The notes under the pieces were generated by a model. It searched no databases. It was not told where the DNA came from and saw nothing but the letters and a program-made list of their open reading frames with translations. The position numbers and the translations under genes were made by a program. Of a stretch of DNA of 64,000 nucleotides, positions 3,805 to 64,000 are shown one piece after another. Location of the stretch: NCBI GenBank assembly GCA_963729605.1, contig CAVSNY010000007.1, forward strand, positions 320,001-384,000, written 5' to 3'. Source of the stretch: an uncultured Gammaproteobacteria bacterium. Lineage in GTDB: Bacteria; Pseudomonadota; Gammaproteobacteria; DRLM01. Numbering within the stretch: position 1 is the stretch's first letter; each line of letters begins with the position of its first letter.

Positions 3805-4329
3805 TTGCCTCCGGAAATGATTTTGCCGGCCCTGCTGGTTTTCCAAGGCGTCGTCGGCGGTGTCGATACGCTGGTTAATCACGAAATCATCGAGCGCTTG
3901 CCGCACCGCGTCGAAGCGCGCAACGAGATCGGCCTGCACTGGATACGCGAAACCATTTACGCGTGTTTGTTCGGCGGTTTGGCTTGGTTCGAATTTCATG
4001 GCGCCGCGGCGGTGTTCATCGTCGCGTTGCTGATCGGCGAAATCATCGTCACCGTATGCGACGAATACATAGAAAATCAGATCCGCGTCCTACCGCAGAA
4101 CGAACGGGTGCTGCACGTATTGCTCACTCTCAATTTAGGGCTGGTGATCGCCGTGCTGGTGCCGACCCTGATCGGTTGGGGCAGCTTGCCCACCGGATTG
4201 GCGCCGGTCGAATACGGATTGCTTTCCTGGATACTCAGCGGGTTCGCCTTGCTGGGCGTAGGCTGGGCAATACGCGATTTTATCGCCTGGCGAAAATTGC
4301 GGCGCTTGAGCGGCGCGAGCGCTGCGTGA
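3805..4329 (+). CDS. membrane protein resembling the N-terminal domain fused to some TIGR01777 epimerases
   Basis: 174 aa, several TM helices, GGVDTLVNHEIIERL and LPQNERVLH motifs. Confidence 0.6.
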   Translation: MPPEMILPALLVFQGVVGGVDTLVNHEIIERLPHRVEARNEIGLHWIRETIYACLFGGLAWFEFHGAAAVFIVALLIGEIIVTVCDEYIENQIRVLPQNERVLHVLLTLNLGLVIAVLVPTLIGWGSLPTGLAPVEYGLLSWILSGFALLGVGWAIRDFIAWRKLRRLSGASAA

Positions 4330-4483
4330 TGAAGTCAATACAAGAGACTGTCCAATTAAACGCAATACCTCTGCGATTCGGCAAGGGCTTTCGCGGTGCT
4401 TTAGGCAAGACTAGAGTGTAATGCGGGAGAGTCTATAGATACGCTTGTTTCCTCACTCAATCACTATTCCCAATTCAGAGCAG

Positions 4484-4555
4484 GTAGGATGCGGTGAGCA
4501 TCGCGATCCGCATCAATCGTGAACGGTGCGGTTCATTTCATTCACCGCATCCTAC
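4484..4555. repeat. GTAG-family REP pair (REPIN-like)
   Basis: GTAGGATGCGGTGA ... TCACCGCATCCTAC terminal inverted repeat with internal palindromes. Confidence 0.8.
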
Positions 4556-4562
4556 TTTTTCT

Positions 4563-5540
4563 TTACGACCAATGATGCAGAGCAACAGATTTCGGTTGTG
4601 CAAAGCGAAAGCTTCTTGAAATGCCGTCCCCTTCGAATCGCGACGTAGCGCTACCAAACACAACTTCTTCTGTCGTTGACCAGCCGTAAAGTATGGAACC
4701 ATACAAACCGGAATTGAGGCTATGTTTGGATTGCTCGTCTGTCTTGAGCCTGATTGTTGCTCTCGAAAATGGGTGGCTTTCCCCAAATGTGTAGATTGGT
4801 AGACGCGCCGCGGCTCGAACCGCATTGGCAAAGCATTCCGATTTCGTGCTCGCCTCAACTTCGGAAGAGGCGGCCATTCTCTCTATAAATTGAGCGAGAT
4901 CTCTTGAGCAATTTAGCAGAAGCAGAATTGCTTCCCAAACAAGGGTTGTTATAGAGAAAGTATCGTTCTGGGCATGGAACGTTCTGCTTGGGCAGACCAC
5001 TCCAGACTCGACTCCTTCAATAAAGTAACCGTGTAAGCACCCTTCCTTACCGGCTTTCGAATACTCCAAAGAGAACATTCGTATCCGAGCCTGCTGATGC
5101 TTTAGGTTATTTGCCGCAGCCGACAGAAAGCGCTTGTGCTCTTTAAGACGCTTGTCGAGTTGCCGATAGTATGGGCTCTTGTCCCGCAGTTGCTTCGACT
5201 TAAAGAATCCGGACGCAATTGCATATATGTCATCAACGTGCTCGGCCGCCGCGTATAGCGATAACTCGATATAGTCAATCACCTCCTCCATTAGCGCATT
5301 TTCTTTCTTCAGTAGATCAATTTTAGAAGAGGCCAAAAAGTAGGATTCCAACCTGCTGCACAAGCGAAATAGCTTATTGCATAGGCGCGACGTCGAAACG
5401 TTGTAAATTCCTATAGGCAGGCGAAGGTTGCTTGTTGTATGAAAACAGCGCTCGACATTTACTTTCAACAAGACAAGGTGCGCTTGAAGGCTGGATGGCG
5501 CTTCTTTCGTAAGATCGACTTCGTAGATTTCCTTGCTCAC
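4563..5540 (-). CDS. hypothetical cassette-type protein, possibly HEPN-like
   Basis: 325-aa AT-rich ORF, helical N-terminal half, ANNLKH motif; GTG start just downstream of GTTAGGG. Confidence 0.7.
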   Translation of the reverse strand: MSKEIYEVDLTKEAPSSLQAHLVLLKVNVERCFHTTSNLRLPIGIYNVSTSRLCNKLFRLCSRLESYFLASSKIDLLKKENALMEEVIDYIELSLYAAAEHVDDIYAIASGFFKSKQLRDKSPYYRQLDKRLKEHKRFLSAAANNLKHQQARIRMFSLEYSKAGKEGCLHGYFIEGVESGVVCPSRTFHAQNDTFSITTLVWEAILLLLNCSRDLAQFIERMAASSEVEASTKSECFANAVRAAARLPIYTFGESHPFSRATIRLKTDEQSKHSLNSGLYGSILYGWSTTEEVVFGSATSRFEGDGISRSFRFAQPKSVALHHWS

Positions 5541-5562
5541 GATTGAATCTTTTCCGAGCCCG

Positions 5563-5590
5563 CCCTAACTTAAAGTAGACATCCTAATTG
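5563..5590 (-). other. attI-like site (copy 4)
   Basis: minus strand AATTAGGATGTCTACTTTAA-GTTAGGG; 16/18 identical to GGGTGTCTACTTTGAGTT at the attI position near 62600. Confidence 0.65.
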
Positions 5591-5612
5591 AAATGGCTAA
5601 TAAGTAAAAATT

Positions 5613-5770
5613 GGGGTAGATTCATTTTATTATTTAGCCAATTACAAACTACTACGCATTTGACATAGCTTTTTGTGGCTTGCCGGGTGCGCACTTTTCA
5701 ATCCGCCTTCTTACTATTTCTTCCACCTTGTCTACGAAAGATGCTATCCAAAGGGATAAATAAATCTGTC
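5613..5770. mobile_element. non-autonomous element with GGGACAGATTTATTT-type inverted ends and a RAYT transposase C-terminal remnant
   Basis: ends ggggtagattcattt / aaataaatctgtc; minus strand translates FVDKVEEIVRRRIEKCAPGKPQK*; near-duplicate at 6845-6996. Confidence 0.65.
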
Positions 5771-5783
5771 TTGGTTTTCGAGG

Positions 5784-6707
5784 TCAAATAAGTTCCTCAT
5801 TGGGCTCCTTTGGTAAGCGGGCTAAATTTGCATTCAATGCATCTGCGTCGATTTGCGGCGCTGCGCCCGGCGCGTATTTCTGAGGCATTGCTGCAAACAT
5901 ATGAGGCGTTACGATACCAAGAAAAGCCTGCAAGTCTAGCCCATTGGATATAGCCGGAATAATCGGCGCGTCGCTATCGGCTGTTGTGCCGGTATAATAT
6001 CTTTGCCCGCCACCACCCTTATGGACCCCTGATTTTTTATGTCGCCAGGCGACGATACAGCGTGGACCAACGGAGTTGTTTGTGAGGCCGAGATGAACCT
6101 TGTAATTAAGAGTGGCAAGATAATCAGTAACTGCGGTTGCTGGGATTTTTAGATTGTCGTGCGCGCGGACTACGTGAAGTAATTCGCGAATCCACTTCTT
6201 GTCTTGCACTAAATAAGCTAAACCAGAGCCCCCGATGCTTAATCGTGGGGTTCGAGGTGATTGATTTGTCGTCGTGCCCACGATGTGACGTATGTAGCGA
6301 AAATTGTAAGTCTTTCGATTGGGCGCAAAAGCAATATCGATAGAGTAGAAACGTGGCTCATCGTTCATGAATGCTGGGATAAAGACGCTATGAGCAGGCT
6401 GGTTGGGTCCCACCATTCGCGATAGGTGCCGGGGAAACTGCTTTTGAAGAGCTGAGGCAAGCACGCCTAACGACTTCTCAAGCGGCAGCTTTCTACCTCG
6501 TAGTACCGCACTCATCCAGTCTGCGGGCTCGGTTCCTTTGGTAGTCGCGCCAAGCCCAGCATAGCCAAGAATGGCGACCCCATCGATTGTCTCTAGGAAC
6601 ATTAGCTTGCAAGCGTCGTCTTTGGGTGGACGACCAGGGTGGGATAGACGTCTATCGGCCAGCAGCCAGATCGTTTCTGGGCCATTAATCGTGAGTATGA
6701 GGGTCAC
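5784..6707 (-). CDS. Ntn-hydrolase / proteasome-beta-like hypothetical protein (cassette gene)
   Basis: 307 aa beginning M-T-LILT...ADRRLS...K...GYAG, later IGGSG; pattern of HslV/proteasome beta subunits. Confidence 0.6.
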   Translation of the reverse strand: MTLILTINGPETIWLLADRRLSHPGRPPKDDACKLMFLETIDGVAILGYAGLGATTKGTEPADWMSAVLRGRKLPLEKSLGVLASALQKQFPRHLSRMVGPNQPAHSVFIPAFMNDEPRFYSIDIAFAPNRKTYNFRYIRHIVGTTTNQSPRTPRLSIGGSGLAYLVQDKKWIRELLHVVRAHDNLKIPATAVTDYLATLNYKVHLGLTNNSVGPRCIVAWRHKKSGVHKGGGGQRYYTGTTADSDAPIIPAISNGLDLQAFLGIVTPHMFAAMPQKYAPGAAPQIDADALNANLARLPKEPNEELI

Positions 6708-6768
6708 TTCTAATCCCCGTATTTGAGCTGCATGCTTATTTTGAATTAATACTATTGCTATGTGTGCT

Positions 6769-6835
6769 GCCTAACGTGTATTAGACACCCTAATTTTTGC
6801 GTCTTTCTTTGCGCCAGGCTGGTGTGTAATTCTGT
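6769..6835 (-). other. attI-like site (copy 3)
   Basis: minus strand GAATTACACACCAGCCTGGCGCAAAGAAAGACGCAAAAATTAGGGTGTCTAATACAC-GTTAGGC. Confidence 0.7.
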
Positions 6836-6844
6836 ATAAAAATT

Positions 6845-6996
6845 GGGACAGATTTATTTTATTCTCTCGTCAATCACAAACTACTACGCATTTGGCGCAG
6901 CCTTTTGCGGACTGCCGGGGGCGCGCTCAATCCGTCTTCCTACTATTTCTTCTACTTGTCTACGAAAAGATCCTCTCCAAAGGGATAAATAAATCT
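6845..6996. mobile_element. second copy of the GGGACAGATTTATTT-bounded RAYT-remnant element
   Basis: gggacagatttattt ... aaataaatct; minus strand EIVGRRIERAPGSPQKAAPNA* (frameshifted relative to the first copy). Confidence 0.65.
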
Positions 6997-7016
6997 ATGG
7001 TTTTGCAGAACCATGC

Positions 7017-7046
7017 GGCGGAACGCCCTTTGGGCTTCCGCCCTAC
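7017..7046 (-). repeat. GTAG-family REP
   Basis: GTAGGGCGGAAGCCCAAAGGGCGTTCCGCC; near-identical copy at 63868-63896. Confidence 0.75.
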
Positions 7047-7048
7047 GA

Positions 7049-7082
7049 GCTTGCGGCACGTCGGCTGCATGGAAGGTTGAGC
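7049..7082 (-). other. left half of an attC site (truncated)
   Basis: minus strand GCTCAAC (RYYYAAC) CTTCCATGCAGCCGACGTGCCGCAAGC, then interrupted by the REP. Confidence 0.6.
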
Positions 7083-7110
7083 CGCTTGAAAAGATGCGCC
7101 CGCAAGCGGG

Positions 7111-7320
7111 TCATTTGCCGCCTGTCTTAAGAGGCGGGGTGCCCTCTTTGAAAATTCCTCGCAGCTGGTTGCGAAACTCGGGGCTGTCATCGTGCCCGTG
7201 CACGGCCATGGCGTGTTGCACGGCAGCCTCCAGGAGCTCTTCTTCGCTGTCGGCCGATATGGCGATCGTGCAATTCATTTCGCTTGGAAATTCACGGCAG
7301 TCTATGTATTTGCGAGCCAC
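7111..7320 (-). CDS. DUF1059 domain-containing protein (small putative metal-binding protein)
   Basis: ARKYIDCREFPSEMNCTIAISADSEEELLEAAVQHAMAVHGH; GTG start after GGAGG. Confidence 0.85.
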   Translation of the reverse strand: MARKYIDCREFPSEMNCTIAISADSEEELLEAAVQHAMAVHGHDDSPEFRNQLRGIFKEGTPPLKTGGK

Positions 7321-7398
7321 GATGACCTCCTTCAAACTGTGAATGAGTGCCGTTGGTTTGTGGGTTAGTTGCTGGGTTGCACCCAAGTCCACCGTAGC

Positions 7399-7476
7399 GC
7401 CTAAGTGTATTGGACCACCTAATTGGCGTCTTCTTTACGCCAGTGTGGTGCGTAATTCCAGCATCGTCAATATGGG
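7399..7476 (-). other. attI-like site (copy 2, core G missing)
   Basis: minus strand ...CTGGCGTAAAGAAGACGCCAATTAGGTGGTCCAATACAC-TTAGGC; about 70 bp nearly identical to 8331-8402. Confidence 0.6.
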
Positions 7477-7478
7477 AT

Positions 7479-7516
7479 AAATAAATCTGTCCCGATTTTG
7501 CCCTCAAGCGTTATGC
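7479..7516 (-). other. attC stub (GCATAAC GCTTGAG) fused to a GGGACAGATTTATTT end
   Basis: minus strand GCATAACGCTTGAGGGCAAAATCGGGACAGATTTATTT shortly after the stop of 7532..8308; GCATAAC is complementary (6/7) to the GTTATAC at that gene's start. Confidence 0.6.
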
Positions 7517-7531
7517 CGCTGGAAGGTAAGG

Positions 7532-8308
7532 CTAAAAGGGAATATCTTCATCGATGGTCTTGGGCGTTGGCTTCCTAAGCACAAACAGCGATTCGTTGTT
7601 CTCAACCCAACTCCACCCCGCGTCCGTAAGCCGCGCTGTGCTGTAGACGTGGTCTCGGTGTTCGTCCCATTCTTCTTTGACCTCAATGAGTTTCTTAGAC
7701 GCAAGGCGGCGGAAGGCGAGCGAAAATCCGATTGCTGTCAGCCCGGAGCGTTCTGAGTCTTCCTTGAGCGAGTAAACGGTCGCGGCGGCGCCAGGAAGTG
7801 CTGTGTCACCTGCAAGTATTGCGAGTACCATCAACTCAGTCTGGGTTAGACCTTGAGTCGGAGCTATCTGTTCAGACTCGGTGATCTGGCGCAGGGCCTC
7901 CGTCTTGTTCAGGAGGGCCTTTATACGCTCAGTCAAAGCCGCCTTCAGATTCTCGAAGTCGCTCGATGACTCAGGCTTGTAGTTGATAACCGTTCGGTGC
8001 TGAATGTGGAATGGATACCTCCCGGAGGTTCGTTCGTTGGAACATACCATCACTACCGGACGGCCCGATGCAAAAGCAAACCCCAGTTCGTACCAGACGT
8101 TCGGGTTATCGGTTGTGATGTCGGCAAGGCAGACTGCTGCGTTGCGGATACCTTGCTCAATGGCGTCGATCGGTACCTCTACCCCGGGATCGCGATCGAC
8201 CCGGTAAGCCTCAAGACCGGCCTCTTTAATAGAGGGGACATAGATGTCATCGAAGCGCTTGTCGAACTTCCCCGCGTCAAAGGGCTGGATCACGAAGCAA
8301 TTGGGCAT
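7532..8308 (-). CDS. nucleoside 2-deoxyribosyltransferase-like (TIR-like Rossmannoid) protein with probable C-terminal winged helix
   Basis: CFVIQPF...YRVD...ADITTDNPNVWYELGFAFASGRP...PFHIQHR; C-terminal LASKKLIE...ARLTDAGWSW. Confidence 0.8.
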   Translation of the reverse strand: MPNCFVIQPFDAGKFDKRFDDIYVPSIKEAGLEAYRVDRDPGVEVPIDAIEQGIRNAAVCLADITTDNPNVWYELGFAFASGRPVVMVCSNERTSGRYPFHIQHRTVINYKPESSSDFENLKAALTERIKALLNKTEALRQITESEQIAPTQGLTQTELMVLAILAGDTALPGAAATVYSLKEDSERSGLTAIGFSLAFRRLASKKLIEVKEEWDEHRDHVYSTARLTDAGWSWVENNESLFVLRKPTPKTIDEDIPF

Positions 8309-8323
8309 ACGAGTCTCACAAAG

Positions 8324-8402
8324 GTATAACGTGTATTAAACACCCTAATTGGCGTCTTCTTTACGCCAGTGTGGTGTGTAATTCCAGCATCGTCAATATG
8401 GG
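8324..8402 (-). other. attI-like site (copy 1)
   Basis: minus strand TTGACGATGCTGGAATTACACACCACACTGGCGTAAAGAAGACGCCAATTAGGGTGTTTAATACAC-GTTATAC, 15 bp before the ATG. Confidence 0.7.
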
Positions 8403-8523
8403 ACAAGGGTCGATAAGGAATTGCTAGTTTTATACGGCCCAATGAAAAAGTGTCACCACCTCGTTGCGCGGACCGTCCAAGTATCTTGATACCTCATACG
8501 CTTGCGGCGGGATGATTTATCAA

Positions 8524-8913
8524 TCATCCACCGCCAAAAATCACCCCGCTCAAATCCACGTCGCGGAGGTCGGCCATTTTGATGCCGGCTTCGTCGATGT
8601 GCGCGCCGGTGAGGTTGGCGCCGGCGAGTTTGGCGCCCAGCCATTTCGCGCCGCGTAAACGCGCGCCGCTCAAGTCGGCGCCGCTGAAGTTGGCGGCGTT
8701 CAAGTCGGCGCGTTCGAGATTGGCGCCTCGCAGGTTGGCCAGCCGCGCATCGGCGTCGCGCAGATTGGCGCCGCTGAGGTTGACGCCGCTGAGGTCGAGC
8801 TCGACCAGATTGGCGTCGAGGAATTCGACGCCGGACAGGTCGGCGCCATGCAGGCTGGTGCCGGCGTAACTCAGGAGCAGGATGAAGCCGCGGCGGTCGT
8901 AGATTTCGATCAT
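8524..8913 (-). CDS. pentapeptide repeat protein
   Basis: tandem A(D/N)LxG pentapeptides. Confidence 0.9.
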   Translation of the reverse strand: MIEIYDRRGFILLLSYAGTSLHGADLSGVEFLDANLVELDLSGVNLSGANLRDADARLANLRGANLERADLNAANFSGADLSGARLRGAKWLGAKLAGANLTGAHIDEAGIKMADLRDVDLSGVIFGGG

Positions 8914-8947
8914 GATGGTGATGGATTCTCTGAGGGGTGGGATGATT

Positions 8948-9823
8948 CTAAGCGTATTCGCCGATGAAGTTGAGATCGGTGTGGCCGCATTTGCGGCCGG
9001 CCAGACGGCAGGCGGTTTCCAGTGCCTCGGCGAGCGTCAGACGGCGGACGAGGGCGTCGATGATGCCGGCGTTGAAGGTGTCGCCCGCGCCCAGGGTGTC
9101 GACGACCCGCGGCGGTGGAAAGGCCGGGCTGTGGATTAATTGGCCCCCGCGACTGAGGGCCCAGGCGCCGGCCGCGCCCCAGGCCAGGACCAGGTCGGCC
9201 TGCGGCGCGCGGCGGTGCATGTCGTGTAGAAACCGCGCGGGTTCTCCGCCGGCTTGGGCTTGCACGTAGGCGCGGGAGAACAAGAGGAGGGTGGCCAGCG
9301 GGAAGAGTTGTTCGATGCCGGGACGCGGTTTTTCGATCTCCACCGAGCGCGGGGTTTGCGGGCGGGTGACGCGGGCCAGTTCGAGCATGCGGGCGGTGTC
9401 GGCGATGTTGCGGCCTTCGAAATGCAGCCAATCGAAGCCGGCGAGATCGACGGTTTGAAAATCTTCGTAGCGGTATTCCGGCAAATCGCGGTAGTGCACG
9501 ATGGTGCGCGAGCCGTTTTGTTGATTCAGCGTGATGTAGGAGGTGGGGACTTTGCCGTGGGCGAGGCGTCGCACCGGGCCGAGGTCGATGCCGAAGCCGT
9601 TCAAGTCGTCGGTGATGCGCGTGGCGTCGGACTCGTCGGCCAGCACGCCGCCCCAGGCACAGTCATGGCCGAGCTGGCTGAGCACCACCAGGCTGTTGGT
9701 GCAGTTGCCGCCGCGGCGCACGCGCTGCGCCAGGGCGCGCACCTCGGTGTCCTCCGGCGGGTAGGCGGCGACGGTGTTGATGATGTCGAGAGTGGCGATG
9801 CCGACGCCGAGGATGTGGGCCAT
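8948..9823 (-). CDS. PfkB family carbohydrate kinase (ketohexokinase-like)
   Basis: RRGGNCTNS, WLHFEGRN and DTLGAGDTFN motifs. Confidence 0.9.
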   Translation of the reverse strand: MAHILGVGIATLDIINTVAAYPPEDTEVRALAQRVRRGGNCTNSLVVLSQLGHDCAWGGVLADESDATRITDDLNGFGIDLGPVRRLAHGKVPTSYITLNQQNGSRTIVHYRDLPEYRYEDFQTVDLAGFDWLHFEGRNIADTARMLELARVTRPQTPRSVEIEKPRPGIEQLFPLATLLLFSRAYVQAQAGGEPARFLHDMHRRAPQADLVLAWGAAGAWALSRGGQLIHSPAFPPPRVVDTLGAGDTFNAGIIDALVRRLTLAEALETACRLAGRKCGHTDLNFIGEYA

Positions 9824-62393: not shown

Positions 62394-62462
62394 GCTGTAA
62401 TGCTTGACCCGGATTTTCTCCCGCACCTGATCCAACAGCTTTGGCTTGACAGCGTTCTGCAT
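62394..62462 (-). pseudogene. intI: integron integrase N-terminal remnant (23 codons)
   Basis: [23 protein letters not shown] is the characteristic IntI N-terminus; divergent from attI and cassettes. Confidence 0.8.
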
Positions 62463-62547
62463 GGAAGTGCACCCTCTTCAAAAAGAGTTGGGGCAATCCG
62501 CGCCCCGGCTCGTTTGACAGGTAATGACTTACAAAAAACGAAAGGAT

Positions 62548-62606
62548 TAGACGCCAAATATGGCGCAATTTAAAGTACCAGATTGGGTGTCTACTTTGAG
62601 TTCGGC
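62548..62606 (+). other. attI site
   Basis: AGACGCCAAATATGGCGC...TTGGGTGTCTACTTTGA-GTTCGGC between the intI start and the first cassette ORF. Confidence 0.7.
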
Positions 62607-63107: not shown

Positions 63108-63193
63108 AACGGCACTCGTTCGGACGCAAACTACGCTGCGCTGCGCTGCGCTGCGCTGCGCTTCGTTTGCGCCGCGCAGCTTGGTCTTTAGAG
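63102..63193 (+). other. attC site (non-canonical core, microsatellite loop)
   Basis: GCCTAAA-ACGGCACTCGTTCGGACGCAAAC...GTTTGCGCCGCGCAGCTTGGTC-TTTAGAG imperfect palindrome. Confidence 0.75.
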
Positions 63194-63226: not shown

Positions 63227-63871
63227 ATGGGTCTGTTTGGAAATATCACAAGTGCTTACAAGAAAAGCGAGGCGGCCGTTGTAGTTCAAAACCTTCTGGA
63301 ACATCAGGCACGCGTTGGTTTGCTCGATCTCGATCCAAAGGCTCTGGCTAATCGTCTAGTCAGCGTCCTCTGGGACCAGAAACCGGATCTCTTCGATGGA
63401 AAATTTGGGCAACGACCGCACAAGATCTCGGTAGCCGCCGCCGCACTTGCAGACGGAATTGGAAGGTTTGAGGCTCAAGACACCAATCGCGAAGCCCTGA
63501 TCCTCGCGCTGAGCAATGTGCTATCAGAAATCGAGACAAACGGGCGCCTTTATCCCTTTAACGGTATCGACGAAATATTGCTCGAGGCCGCTGGTGCAAT
63601 TTTTGTGGCAATGACGGAGGAACTCCGCGGACGATCTGGTAACACCACGCCGCCGTCGGCATACGCTACATTCGAAGATTGGTATGCCGAATTCAAGATT
63701 GGCGCTGGAAAAGCCAACCCTGCTCTGCGGGAAGCAGATGGTTCGAGCTTAATAGACTTCATGGATCACGAGCCGTTGCGGCGCGCATTTCGCGATCGCG
63801 TCGAACCGCGCTCCCTCGGCACGGAATTCGCGAAGTCTTTCGACATTCGCAAATTCGGCAAGCAAACGTAG
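63227..63871 (+). CDS. integron cassette 2, hypothetical protein
   Basis: 214-aa ORF directly after attC with GGAGAGG RBS. Confidence 0.8.
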   Translation: MGLFGNITSAYKKSEAAVVVQNLLEHQARVGLLDLDPKALANRLVSVLWDQKPDLFDGKFGQRPHKISVAAAALADGIGRFEAQDTNREALILALSNVLSEIETNGRLYPFNGIDEILLEAAGAIFVAMTEELRGRSGNTTPPSAYATFEDWYAEFKIGAGKANPALREADGSSLIDFMDHEPLRRAFRDRVEPRSLGTEFAKSFDIRKFGKQT

Positions 63872-63896
63872 GGCGGAAGCCCAACGGGCGTTCCGC
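63868..63896 (+). repeat. GTAG-family REP
   Basis: GTAGGGCGGAAGCCCAACGGGCGTTCCGC; same family as 7017-7046. Confidence 0.75.
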
Positions 63897-64000
63897 AGGA
63901 TGTTTGCCGCGGCTCAACACCCCCGCTCACCACCGATCATGTCCGCCGAAACATATCCGCCCCAATTAGCCGGATAAACGCCGCGTCTCACCCAGTAAGC

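Follow-up and report, generated by a model that had tools for sequence, protein, structure and literature searches.

Four attI copies, each joined to a different gene, in a probably frozen and repeat-invaded integron array

How do four unrelated genes come to be preceded, within 4 kb, by the same short motif, and is that motif a recombination site? The question arises from the window analysed here, a 64-kb (64,000-nucleotide) stretch of DNA from an uncultured gammaproteobacterium, and its interest lies in the fact that four attI copies in a decayed integron, each with a different captured gene, stand outside both the standard integron model and the detection software. The motif, AATTAGGDKGTYYA-N5/6-GTTA, has three exact minus-strand matches in the window (8327-8350, 6772-6795 and 5566-5589) and none in 100 shuffles, and a fourth copy at 7401-7424 reads ...ACAC-TTAGG, without the crossover G. 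The four-gene pattern reported in a preliminary description is thereby reproduced, as are its finer points: the near-identity of 7405-7476 and 8331-8402 (a direct repeat of 76 nt, 7405-7480 versus 8331-8406, 92% identical), the GGCG(T/C)...ACGC palindrome of three copies (present in A, B and C below, missing from D), and the identity of copy D, cited there as 5563, to 62585-62602 at 16/18 positions. A looser 20-mer with up to three mismatches matched copies A, C and D and 62583-62602, four matches against 0.10 expected. At no more than one mismatch, there were 12 matches in the source genome (reversed control, 0) and 0–1 in each of 60 relatives; with those found by BLAST, its attI-like copies number 14 or more. 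The features, from the start of the array, are as follows:

8327..8487, minus strand: attI copy A, flavour 1, a full platform remnant, homologous to the attI beside the intact intI of genome G001 (locus L014)
7532..8308, minus strand: gene 1, 258 aa, its cassette beginning at 8329 (TTATACC)
7500..7517, minus strand: 5' attC stub of cassette 1, from comparison with attCs of G004, G045 and G001
7474..7499, minus strand: 5' end of element X, 26 nt, AAAATCGGGACAGATTTATTTATCCC, fused straight to attI copy B
7401..7476, minus strand: attI copy B, flavour 1, from about -72, 92% identical to A
7111..7320, minus strand: gene 2, a DUF1059 protein of 69 aa from the GTG at 7320 (Pfam PF06348, E 4.6e-11, 43.2 bits)
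7047..7082, minus strand: 5' half of the cassette 2 attC (GCTCAAC-CTTCC-ATGCAGCCGAC...), broken by a REP unit
7005..7046, minus strand: single REP unit, GTAG then palindrome GGCGGAAGCCC/GGGCGTTCCGCC (genome search, at least 12 copies)
6838..7003, minus strand: element X, MITE-like, full copy with terminal inverted repeats AAAAYYRRGACAGATTTATTTAT (repeat comparison, genome BLAST)
6772..6832, minus strand: attI copy C, flavour 1, from about -55 (repeat comparison, motif match)
5784..6707, minus strand: gene 3, 307 aa, with a homologue in G025
5606..5778, minus strand: second full copy of X, starting 5 nt past the gene 3 stop
5566..5604, minus strand: attI copy D, flavour 2, strongly truncated (about -40, internal deletion), from alignment
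4563..5540, minus strand: gene 4, 325 aa, an open reading frame
4477..4562, no strand assigned: REPIN of a second family (GTAGGATGCGGTGA ... TCACCGCATCCTAC) at the array end
62394..62602, no strand assigned: second integron remnant, an intI stub and attI followed by two cassettes (alignment to IntI)

Judged by its homologues, the motif is a real attI, as had been proposed. In G001, which belongs to the same genus, a flavour-1-like site is placed about 70 nt away from where the intact intI begins, and a flavour-2-like site adjoins the intact intI of G045 (L025). The comparison covered 20 intact-intI loci; in intact integrons, 70–160 nt of the array's attI sequence stand between intI and the first cassette. 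Of the 28 motif-bearing loci met with in 185,579 scanned species genomes, 12 have a divergent IntI-like ORF 0.1–1.6 kb away. The homology ends at G|TT (or a mutated G/T) in 14/14 copies aligned or inspected, past which each continues into unrelated sequence starting TT(A/G)(G/T). The second remnant offers an attI by position in the window itself: its core (62583-62602, plus strand, crossover G 62600) accompanies an intI stub (about 23 codons, minus strand, 62462 onwards), already suspected as an integrase remnant, which matches an intact IntI from the same genus over its residues 22-39, at 67% identity in 18 aa (E 4.5e-11 in a single comparison).

The four copies are not equivalent. Copy A is a full attI region whose integrase is gone: the crossover G of its core, ..AATTAGGGTGTTTAATACAC-G|TT, is 8330, the GGCGT..ACGCC hairpin is present, Pc-like hexamers occur at 8396-8391 (TTGACG) and 8373-8368 (CACACT), and 8433-8487 is a fragment in common with the 3' end of an addB-like gene and its junction (C7:1213 kb). 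Copy B keeps TTGACG-N17-CACACT and the hairpin and has lost the crossover G (ACAC|TTAGG), with cassette 2 running from 7404. Copy C, 87% identical to A over 61 nt, is without the -35 hexamer and joins cassette 3 at 6774 (TTAGGC; crossover G 6775). In copy D, the distal TATTAGCCATTTC is fused to the proximal AATTAGGATGTCTACTTTAAG|TT (crossover G 5569, cassette 4 from 5568), as if the stretch between both AATTAGG repeats of a full flavour-2 site had been deleted. The proposed repeating unit of attI, upstream region and first cassette thus describes A only; B, C and D are truncated and fused to MITE or REP sequence, which points to repeat-associated rearrangement rather than to a designed module.

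What follows each G|TT is a former integron cassette. The genes are promoterless, AT-rich, small and unrelated, and lie next to core genes. At its N-terminus, the gene 1 protein has a predicted domain that resembles TIR or nucleoside deoxyribosyltransferase (PADLOC TIR effector model, E 3.6e-8; Pfam PF05014, 26.2 bits, under the family cut-off), and its 72% identical homologue in G402 is likewise followed by GCCATAAC-ATTTC-ATTCAAG. Genes 3 and 4 had no family match in Pfam, PADLOC and further family searches; the G025 homologue of gene 3 (58% identical) lies between attC-like repeats of about 86 nt ending ..AAAGCGGACGTTCAAA. The cassette origin suspected earlier is thus backed by cassette-type homologues of genes 1 and 3. 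The attC stubs noticed behind two genes are there as well: in stub 1 (GCATAAC, 7516-7510), GGCATAAC is 7/8 complementary to the start of cassette 1, GTTATACC, and the L''-like GCTTGAGGGC precedes the X end that terminates it, while GCTCAAC of stub 2 (7082-7076) is 5/7 complementary to the cassette 2 start, GTTAGGC. The 5 nt between the gene 3 stop and X hold no such stub, and a hairpin scan that overlooked at least one real attC elsewhere found no complete attC in the array, in keeping with its description as attC-less.

It is integrase-less too, as had been stated: no intact intI occurs in the array or in the genome as assembled (94.5% complete, 7 contigs), though one may lie on the missing part. 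TIGR02249 scores reach 76 bits at best, the cut-off being 265, stubs lie at C7:412215-412467, and among the seven Phage_integrase-family (PF00589) matches listed, two are the loci of the 76- and 67-bit TIGR02249 matches. The array is therefore inert at present unless an outside integrase acts on it.

The gaps between genes and attI copies are filled by X and REP elements, which the preliminary description overlooked. X is about 170 nt at full length; no target duplication is visible at 6838..7003, in which it resembles IS110/IS1111 or IS200/IS605-type elements, and a sister copy folds no better than shuffles (z 0.11). The genome has one Y1_Tnp gene, beside a mini X-like hairpin at C7:53-753. 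The REP family of 7005-7046 forms inverted doublets of about 120 nt (REPINs) elsewhere in the genome; the second-family REPIN at 4477..4562 is not an attC, and it has copies on contigs C2, C3, C6 and C7. X or a REPIN lies directly upstream in 7/7 internal attI copies (B, C, D, F, G, H and c406) and, among eight array-initial ones, in 0/7 with one (K) ambiguous. Both elements also occur within real attCs of G003 and G001.

These observations are best accommodated, with a probability of roughly 0.55, by a frozen, repeat-invaded array whose attI segments owe their duplication to non-canonical recombination. The locus would be what is left of a sedentary chromosomal integron, in the lineage of which attI became split from intI and multiplied. 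The internal copies B, C and D were probably not products of canonical integrase reactions, since neither attI x attC nor attC x attC exchange is able to duplicate what lies upstream of the crossover; recombination or transposition linked to X and REP/REPIN is the likelier means by which segments bearing attI were copied into the array or moved there. That the flavour-2 copies carry 8–25 codons of intI (KLLDQVRAKIRLKH) indicates that whole pieces of the platform were copied, not sites alone. An integrase acting in trans, intact in sister species, may then have used the extra sites: at solo attI sites of the atpC locus (G000, the source genome, G001 and G003) and the addB-like locus (G000 and G001), the same left junction is followed by different first cassettes, which implies capture in trans. 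The idea that the copies are independent capture sites is accordingly borne out at these two other loci of the genus, where orthologous sites do carry different genes past the GTT, and not at the internal copies here. With intI now gone, the array would be frozen and decaying; the truncated attCs and the lost crossover G of copy B speak for decay.

A possible though doubtful alternative is that attI-bounded modules form an active second cassette grammar, with an integrase in trans moving blocks by attI x attI or attI x attC exchange and each copy a live capture site. Its attI x attI step is an established reaction of IntI1, going by an eLife 2020 article (PMC7790495). Metagenome contigs of three studies (side 244 in X1, side 200 in X3, side 26 in X2) join 6795 to 8357 and so lack modules 1-2, a strain-level indel of exactly these modules with its joint within the A/C attI repeat, and as 87% identity over 61 nt makes a poor RecA substrate, this fits integrase-mediated attI x attI better than passive decay. 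The order full A, block, truncated C, gene 3 is that expected from a circle with a truncated attI entering a chromosomal attI; each copy is fused to a different gene at G|TT, and the solo sites of the genus have swapped their first cassettes. Two further points tell against the frozen array: at the F locus, 13 nt separate X from the end of a complete attC (ACATAAC...GTTGAGG), so that the attI-bearing segment starts almost at an integrase crossover, and the intact X 3' end meets the region upstream of attI at four junction positions that all differ, with one orientation throughout, which is not easily explained by one ancestral insertion and copying. However, the attI copies have unlike left ends, which fall at MITE/REP junctions rather than crossovers, copy B lacks the crossover G and D most of the site, and the intI codons of flavour-2 copies are needless for a site-specific reaction. 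Nor does the assembled genome encode an intI, the near-identity of A and C around G|TT keeps the contig joint from being placed at that point, and slippage deletion between direct repeats yields the same product.

Very improbable is an ordinary CALIN in which the motif is the 3' (L'-R') end of an odd attC family. GTCTAAT-ACAC-GTTAGGC, with its inverted CTAA/TTAG, does look like L'-spacer-R'; copies A and B span 72–76 nt, which is within the size range of attCs, and A folds into a modest imperfect hairpin. Yet this same sequence separates intI from the first cassette in intact integrons, it has no R''/L'' partner upstream, and classical attC stubs are separately present behind genes 1 and 2; five sites show no folding advantage over shuffles (z -0.21 to -1.95), whereas the real attCs seen in relatives reach -0.21 to -0.28 kcal/mol per nt and have R''-R' closure. 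There is equally little to recommend a promoter or 5'-leader cassette that spread for expression and plays no part in recombination here. The hexamers kept in A and B, and the TTGACG-N17-CATACT (9/12) facing the cassettes at the G001 site, would suit it, but C and D are without hexamers, a promoter scan of 4300-8600 gave 0 sites against 4.0 expected in shuffles, and the homology ends at the recombination crossover, never at a transcription or translation landmark. The several independent expression sites claimed earlier are at most putative, the Pc-like hexamers being confined to A and B and under the scan threshold. An assembly artefact or chimeric bin with mis-joined contigs is the least credible reading: 7180-7470, around the copy B junctions, has almost no independent cover in four metagenome runs and contig C47 of the closest relative, G003, breaks within attI A, but the copies, at 81–92% identity, are too diverged to collapse or mis-join, independent contigs bridge gene 4-D-X (X1 record 1), X-gene 3-attI (X1 record 5) and gene 1-attI A (X6 record 28), and the attI-plus-gene layout recurs at four other loci of the genome.

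Among known systems, the canonical platform of intI, Pc and one attI shares with the array the site homology, the G|TT crossover, a predicted Pc-like promoter facing the cassettes and, in flavour 2, upstream accessory repeats (AATTAGG twice) that recall the direct repeats of attI1. It differs in having one attI per integrase instead of at least 14 in one genome, most of them without intI or with just those few codons, and four in tandem here. Rearrangements associated with MITEs or IS elements are known from MITE-flanked class 1 integrons and from IS1111-attC elements, which target attC sites; here too, attCs contain a short non-autonomous element that has terminal inverted repeats and flanks attI-gene units in direct orientation (X-attI C-gene 3-X), although X, instead of enclosing a whole integron, is joined to stubs of attI or intI. 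The array also resembles a CALIN or degraded sedentary chromosomal integron in its cassette genes and in its lost or stub-only intI, and according to Cury et al. 2016 (PMC4889954) an integrase whose gene lies at another place could in principle act on such cassettes in trans. A CALIN, by contrast, has at least two attCs by definition; with no complete attC found and attI as the repeated site, such an array would go unreported. As in attG insertion, described by Loot et al. (bioRxiv 10.1101/2022.09.11.507474), cassettes stand at chromosomal places away from an integrase; unlike loose consensus sites, the landing sites here are 40–160-nt homologues of bona fide attI, at the same loci across species.

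The motif that precedes each of the four minus-strand genes between 4484 and 8405 recurs non-randomly in the window, as the preliminary description had proposed: three exact matches (8327-8350, 6772-6795 and 5566-5589, minus strand) stand against none in 100 shuffles, and the fourth copy (7401-7424), which lacks the G, was recovered as a 76-nt repeat 92% identical to 8331-8406. Copies A to D, as they are called here, are joined to genes 1 to 4, respectively. Copy D is identical at 16 of 18 positions to the site at 62583-62602, which lies ~120 nt from an integrase (intI) stub aligning with residues 22-39 of an intact IntI from the same genus. The window corresponds to C7:320001-384000 of the source genome (G000). 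Integron integrases were sought in 60 relatives of G000, with 20 genomes above the family cut-off, and 20 intact intI genes had their upstream DNA read. That the motif occupies the attI position of intact integrons is borne out by two of these 20 loci, in the same-genus relative G001 and in G045, and by 12 of the 28 loci recovered in other genomes by a scan for the core through one genome for each of 185,579 species, these 12 having a divergent IntI-like ORF 0.1-1.6 kb off. In G001, copies A, B and C (attI sequence flavour 1) find their homologue in the stretch from intI to the first cassette, which has a hairpin, AATTAGGGTGTC and then GTT; against copy A, the homology runs over ~90 nt and ends at the G|TT crossover point. 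In G045, the sequence adjacent to intI is of the type seen in copy D and at C7:412060 (flavour 2), and a visibly related core is also present at the intact-intI loci read in G012, G027 and G042. In every aligned copy homology ends at G|TT and gives way to unrelated sequence beginning TT(A/G)..; this point is the integrase crossover, as placed in the consensus of the integron crossover box. By these sequence comparisons, the repeated motif is an attI site. Folds of five such sites (z -0.21 to -1.95) lacked R''-R' closure, and the imperfect palindrome that marks an attC was not found in them.

The source genome is unusually rich in such sites: a 20-mer search allowing at most one mismatch gave 12 matches in G000 (none in the reversed control) and 0-1 in each of the 60 relatives, and with BLAST matches added there are at least 14 copies, several of them retaining intI codons (8-25 in the flavour-2 copies).

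attI copies in G000
Flavour 1: A, B, C, E (C7:1213014), J (C7:1031904)
Flavour 2: attI2 (412063), c406, F (1211842), G and H (C5), I (C2), K (C4), D (truncated)
Further copies: attI of the 62.6-kb intI stub; a third flavour behind the atp operon (C7:60134)

An intact intI is absent from the G000 assembly (7 contigs, 94.5% complete), where no TIGR02249 match exceeds 76 bits (cut-off 265) and the gene survives only in stubs; two of the seven Phage_integrase-family (PF00589) hits in the genome coincide with the best of these sub-threshold loci. No IntI ORF was found within 4300-8600 either. The array is thus integrase-less, as first described; it has an attI at its head in copy A and lacks the adjacent integrase of a complete integron.

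The anatomy of the array, read along the minus strand, is one of genes and attI copies separated by remnants of attC sites and by two kinds of repeats, namely a MITE-like element, here called X, and REP/REPIN palindromes.

Features of the array and its repeats
8327..8487, minus strand: copy A, full attI region with Pc-like TTGACG-N17-CACACT, hairpin and core
7532-8308, minus strand: gene 1, TIR-like
7401..7476, minus strand: copy B
6772..6832, minus strand: copy C
5566..5604, minus strand: copy D
5606-5778; 6838-7003; 7474-7499: X in the window
C7:409349, 409843, 1033306, 1063765, 1212064; C5:232671: X elsewhere in G000
7005-7046, 63861-63908; 4477-4562; 63946-64000: REP/REPIN in the window

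Copy A abuts a fragment also found at C7:1213 kb, in the junction that follows an addB-like gene. An MKKCHH.. reading upstream of it was considered as an intI start and set aside, this sequence being shared with the 3' end and junction of the addB-like gene. Gene 1 is followed by GGCATAAC-GCTTGAGGGC, which is complementary at 7 of 8 positions to the start of its own cassette and similar to the R''-L'' part of the relatives' attCs; this attC stub is cut by 26 nt of one X end, itself fused to copy B. Gene 2 (DUF1059) retains ~35 nt of an attC 5' half, and both stubs were confirmed where they had been reported. The gene 2 stub gives way to a single REP unit and a complete X, behind which copy C begins at -55; 5 nt separate gene 3 from another complete X, with copy D, ~40 nt long, next in line; and gene 4 is bounded by a REPIN of another family. 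A promoter scan of 4300-8600 returned no sites, and nothing in 4000-9000 matched Rfam at E up to 1. The stretch 4397-4424, at the array's far end, was rejected as a fifth, very degenerate attI fragment, since its 71% match over 28 nt to the flavour-1 -50 region is too weak; it might be a fully decayed fifth copy or chance.

The four genes look derived from cassettes, as proposed. No DNA homologues of genes 1-4 were found in the near relatives G001-G003, in which the repeats alone match. Homologues that appear cassette-borne were found for gene 1 (72% identical, in G402 of another family, followed by an R''-L''-like GCCATAAC-ATTTC-ATTCAAG) and for gene 3 (58% identical, in G025, flanked by ~86-nt attC-like repeats). 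The N-terminal domain of gene 1 is TIR-like (PADLOC TIR effector model, E 3.6e-8), and the gene may be an anti-phage defence cassette.

The description of the array as attC-less stands as suggestive. Only 5' stubs are seen, and a scan of limited sensitivity for AAC..GTT-closed hairpins gave no intergenic hits in the array (324000-328600, minus strand); the same scan found seven classical attCs in G004, two in G045 and two 47-48-nt sites beside the 62.6-kb attI, but overlooked a real attC at C7:~59.2 kb, and hence its result is no more than suggestive of an array without a complete attC. A covariance model (R1) built from nine attCs of the relatives had just three consensus pairs and was not used. 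Three candidates within the array were discarded: GTAGGGCGGAAGCCC..GGGCGTTCCGCC (7005-7046), taken as a short canonical attC, proved on alignment of 12 genome copies to be a GTAG-palindrome REP in ~120-nt inverted doublets; the palindrome at 4477-4562 belongs to a second REPIN family; and X, taken as a long attC, forms no hairpin (z 0.11). The array resembles a degraded sedentary integron or a CALIN, for which a minimum of two attC sites and no nearby intI are required; intI is indeed not nearby, but the array falls below the two sites, because two truncated 5' halves are not counted as such. In the integron remnant at 62.6 kb, the first cassette ends in a 47-nt hairpin resembling an attC (63125-63171; CGCAAAC...GTTTGCG), with a stem made up of a (GCTGC)n pentanucleotide run.

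Element X, ~170 nt long, is present in ~8 copies of 135-175 nt in G000, with further copies in G003, and has the sequence properties of a MITE, being non-coding with terminal inverted repeats of ~23 nt; target-site duplications, which a MITE should also have, were not found at 10 X copies, nor was a full-length element with the ends of X. It occurs within a REPIN, within attC sites and against intI stubs, in constant orientation relative to attI. The REP sequences show GTAG with a palindrome, which we take to be the hallmark of REPs, and inverted doublets; the sole Y1_Tnp hit (31 bits against a cut-off of 23), a candidate for the RAYT-type Y1 transposase expected alongside such doublets, has a putative link to them. 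Directly after that gene (C7:53-415) lies a mini X of two ends only (C7:701-753), and the pairing of the gene with this X-like hairpin as the partner of X is only a lead. At least three REP/REPIN families, GTAGGGCGGAAGCCC.., GTAGGATGCGGTGA.. and GTAGGGCGCAATAACC.., are found in cassette arrays, and in G001 one REPIN sits within a working-looking attC (L062 4398-4515).

Comparison across species bears out, at two loci, the claim that different genes follow orthologous attI sites. Behind the atp operon terminator (the atpC locus), G000, G001 and G003 have the same attI and left junction followed by three different post-crossover sequences. At the addB-like locus, attI and junction are common to G000 and G001 and the first cassette differs; the cassettes in G001 carry matching attCs, with the R'' GGCTAAC complementary to the start TTAGCC, and two intact intI genes lie elsewhere in that genome. 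These exchanges imply that solo attI sites would capture cassettes in trans. Copies B-D have no orthologous contigs, and these repeats break up the assemblies of the relatives. Other genomes, too, contain solo copies whose upstream DNA is free of intI for 1.7 kb or more (e.g., L079, L082, L088, L090, L092, L095, L104), and of the two copies in one Accumulibacter MAG, L078 has intI and L090 does not. Three MAGs each hold two copies of this attI type, on separate contigs, with no integrase gene near at least one of the pair: L078 and L090 (Accumulibacter), L088 and L092 (gammaproteobacterial), and L079 and L082 (Methylococcales). G050 and G317 are unpublished, and no conclusion depends on either.

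How the attI platform came to be multiplied can be approached from its boundaries. In the canonical reactions of the established model, attI x attC and attC x attC, it is the DNA right of the crossover that is exchanged; neither reaction can duplicate the left part of attI or the intI codons, and so the platform was probably copied by some other process. X or a REPIN lies directly upstream of all seven internal attI copies and is absent in seven of eight array-initial copies (K being ambiguous), and both repeats also occur inside attCs. We therefore favour, with a probability of roughly 0.55, a duplication of the platform via the X/REPIN repeats: these would have settled within attC sites and the 5' end of intI, and ectopic recombination or transposition-linked rearrangement between them would then have yielded the order gene - attC stub - repeat - (intI stub) - attI - gene.

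Tentative, and on balance doubtful, is the alternative that attI is itself a dispersible element, with one integrase serving many landing pads in trans and attI-bounded blocks moved by attI x attI exchange. This would amount to a second, double-stranded cassette grammar, whose arrays without attC would be invisible to attC-based detectors; its scope would be this genus, perhaps wider given the solo copies in Accumulibacter and Methylococcales MAGs. Three observations speak for it: an attI-bounded indel between poorly identical repeats; at locus F, a complete attC 13 nt ahead of X; and four distinct X junctions, all in the same orientation.

Integrons are usually modelled as a single integrase with a single attI and a row of cassettes bounded by attC, and surveys detect them by intI and attC. 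G000 departs from this: no integrase accompanies its attI copies, which number at least 14 and include four in tandem with one captured gene apiece; in addition, solo attI sites at fixed chromosomal loci have cassettes swapped between sister species, and a strain-level indel is bounded by attI copies. In the literature searched, with subscription journals and supplements outside its scope, no description of tandem, solo, orphan or multiple attI sites was found. IntegronFinder detects attI by exact match to class 1-3 sites only (PMC4889954), and arrays of this build escape current tools. If attI multiplies and is served in trans, a genome would have more places of cassette capture and expression than have been counted. 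On the more conservative reading, the array documents a route of integron decay, likewise not found described, with MITE and REP elements entering attC and intI and giving rise to extra copies of the platform.

The strain-level indel emerges from Logan contigs of three studies (runs X1, groundwater; X2, soil; X3, wetland; the run names are unrelated to element X), in which gene 3 through 6795 is joined to 8357 and then to the pentapeptide gene, omitting 1561 nt that comprise gene 1, copy B, DUF1059, the REP and X. Given this joint, the X1-X3 strains have the arrangement attI - gene 3 - X - D - gene 4. The absence of X1-X3 contig cover over 7180-8330 was weighed solely alongside the bridging joint; gene 1 and attI A are covered independently by a contig of run X6, and the region around copy B has no independent cover. 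The metagenome contigs are ~99.5% identical to G000 in the shared cassette part and ~94% in the flank, which suggests that the cassette block has passed recently from one diverged lineage to another. In run X1, the values are ~99.5% over 4300-6795 (genes 3-4) and ~94% over the adjacent core gene (8357-8600). A block rearrangement separates G000 from G001, where the order is intact intI, lysA, methyltransferase gene, corA and then the pentapeptide gene of the window (G001:C50, L045). In G000, lysA, the methyltransferase gene and corA stand beside the intI stub at 412 kb (C7:412.2-418.3 kb), 84 kb away, and the breakpoint, at 8484-8487, falls on the boundary of the attI A unit.
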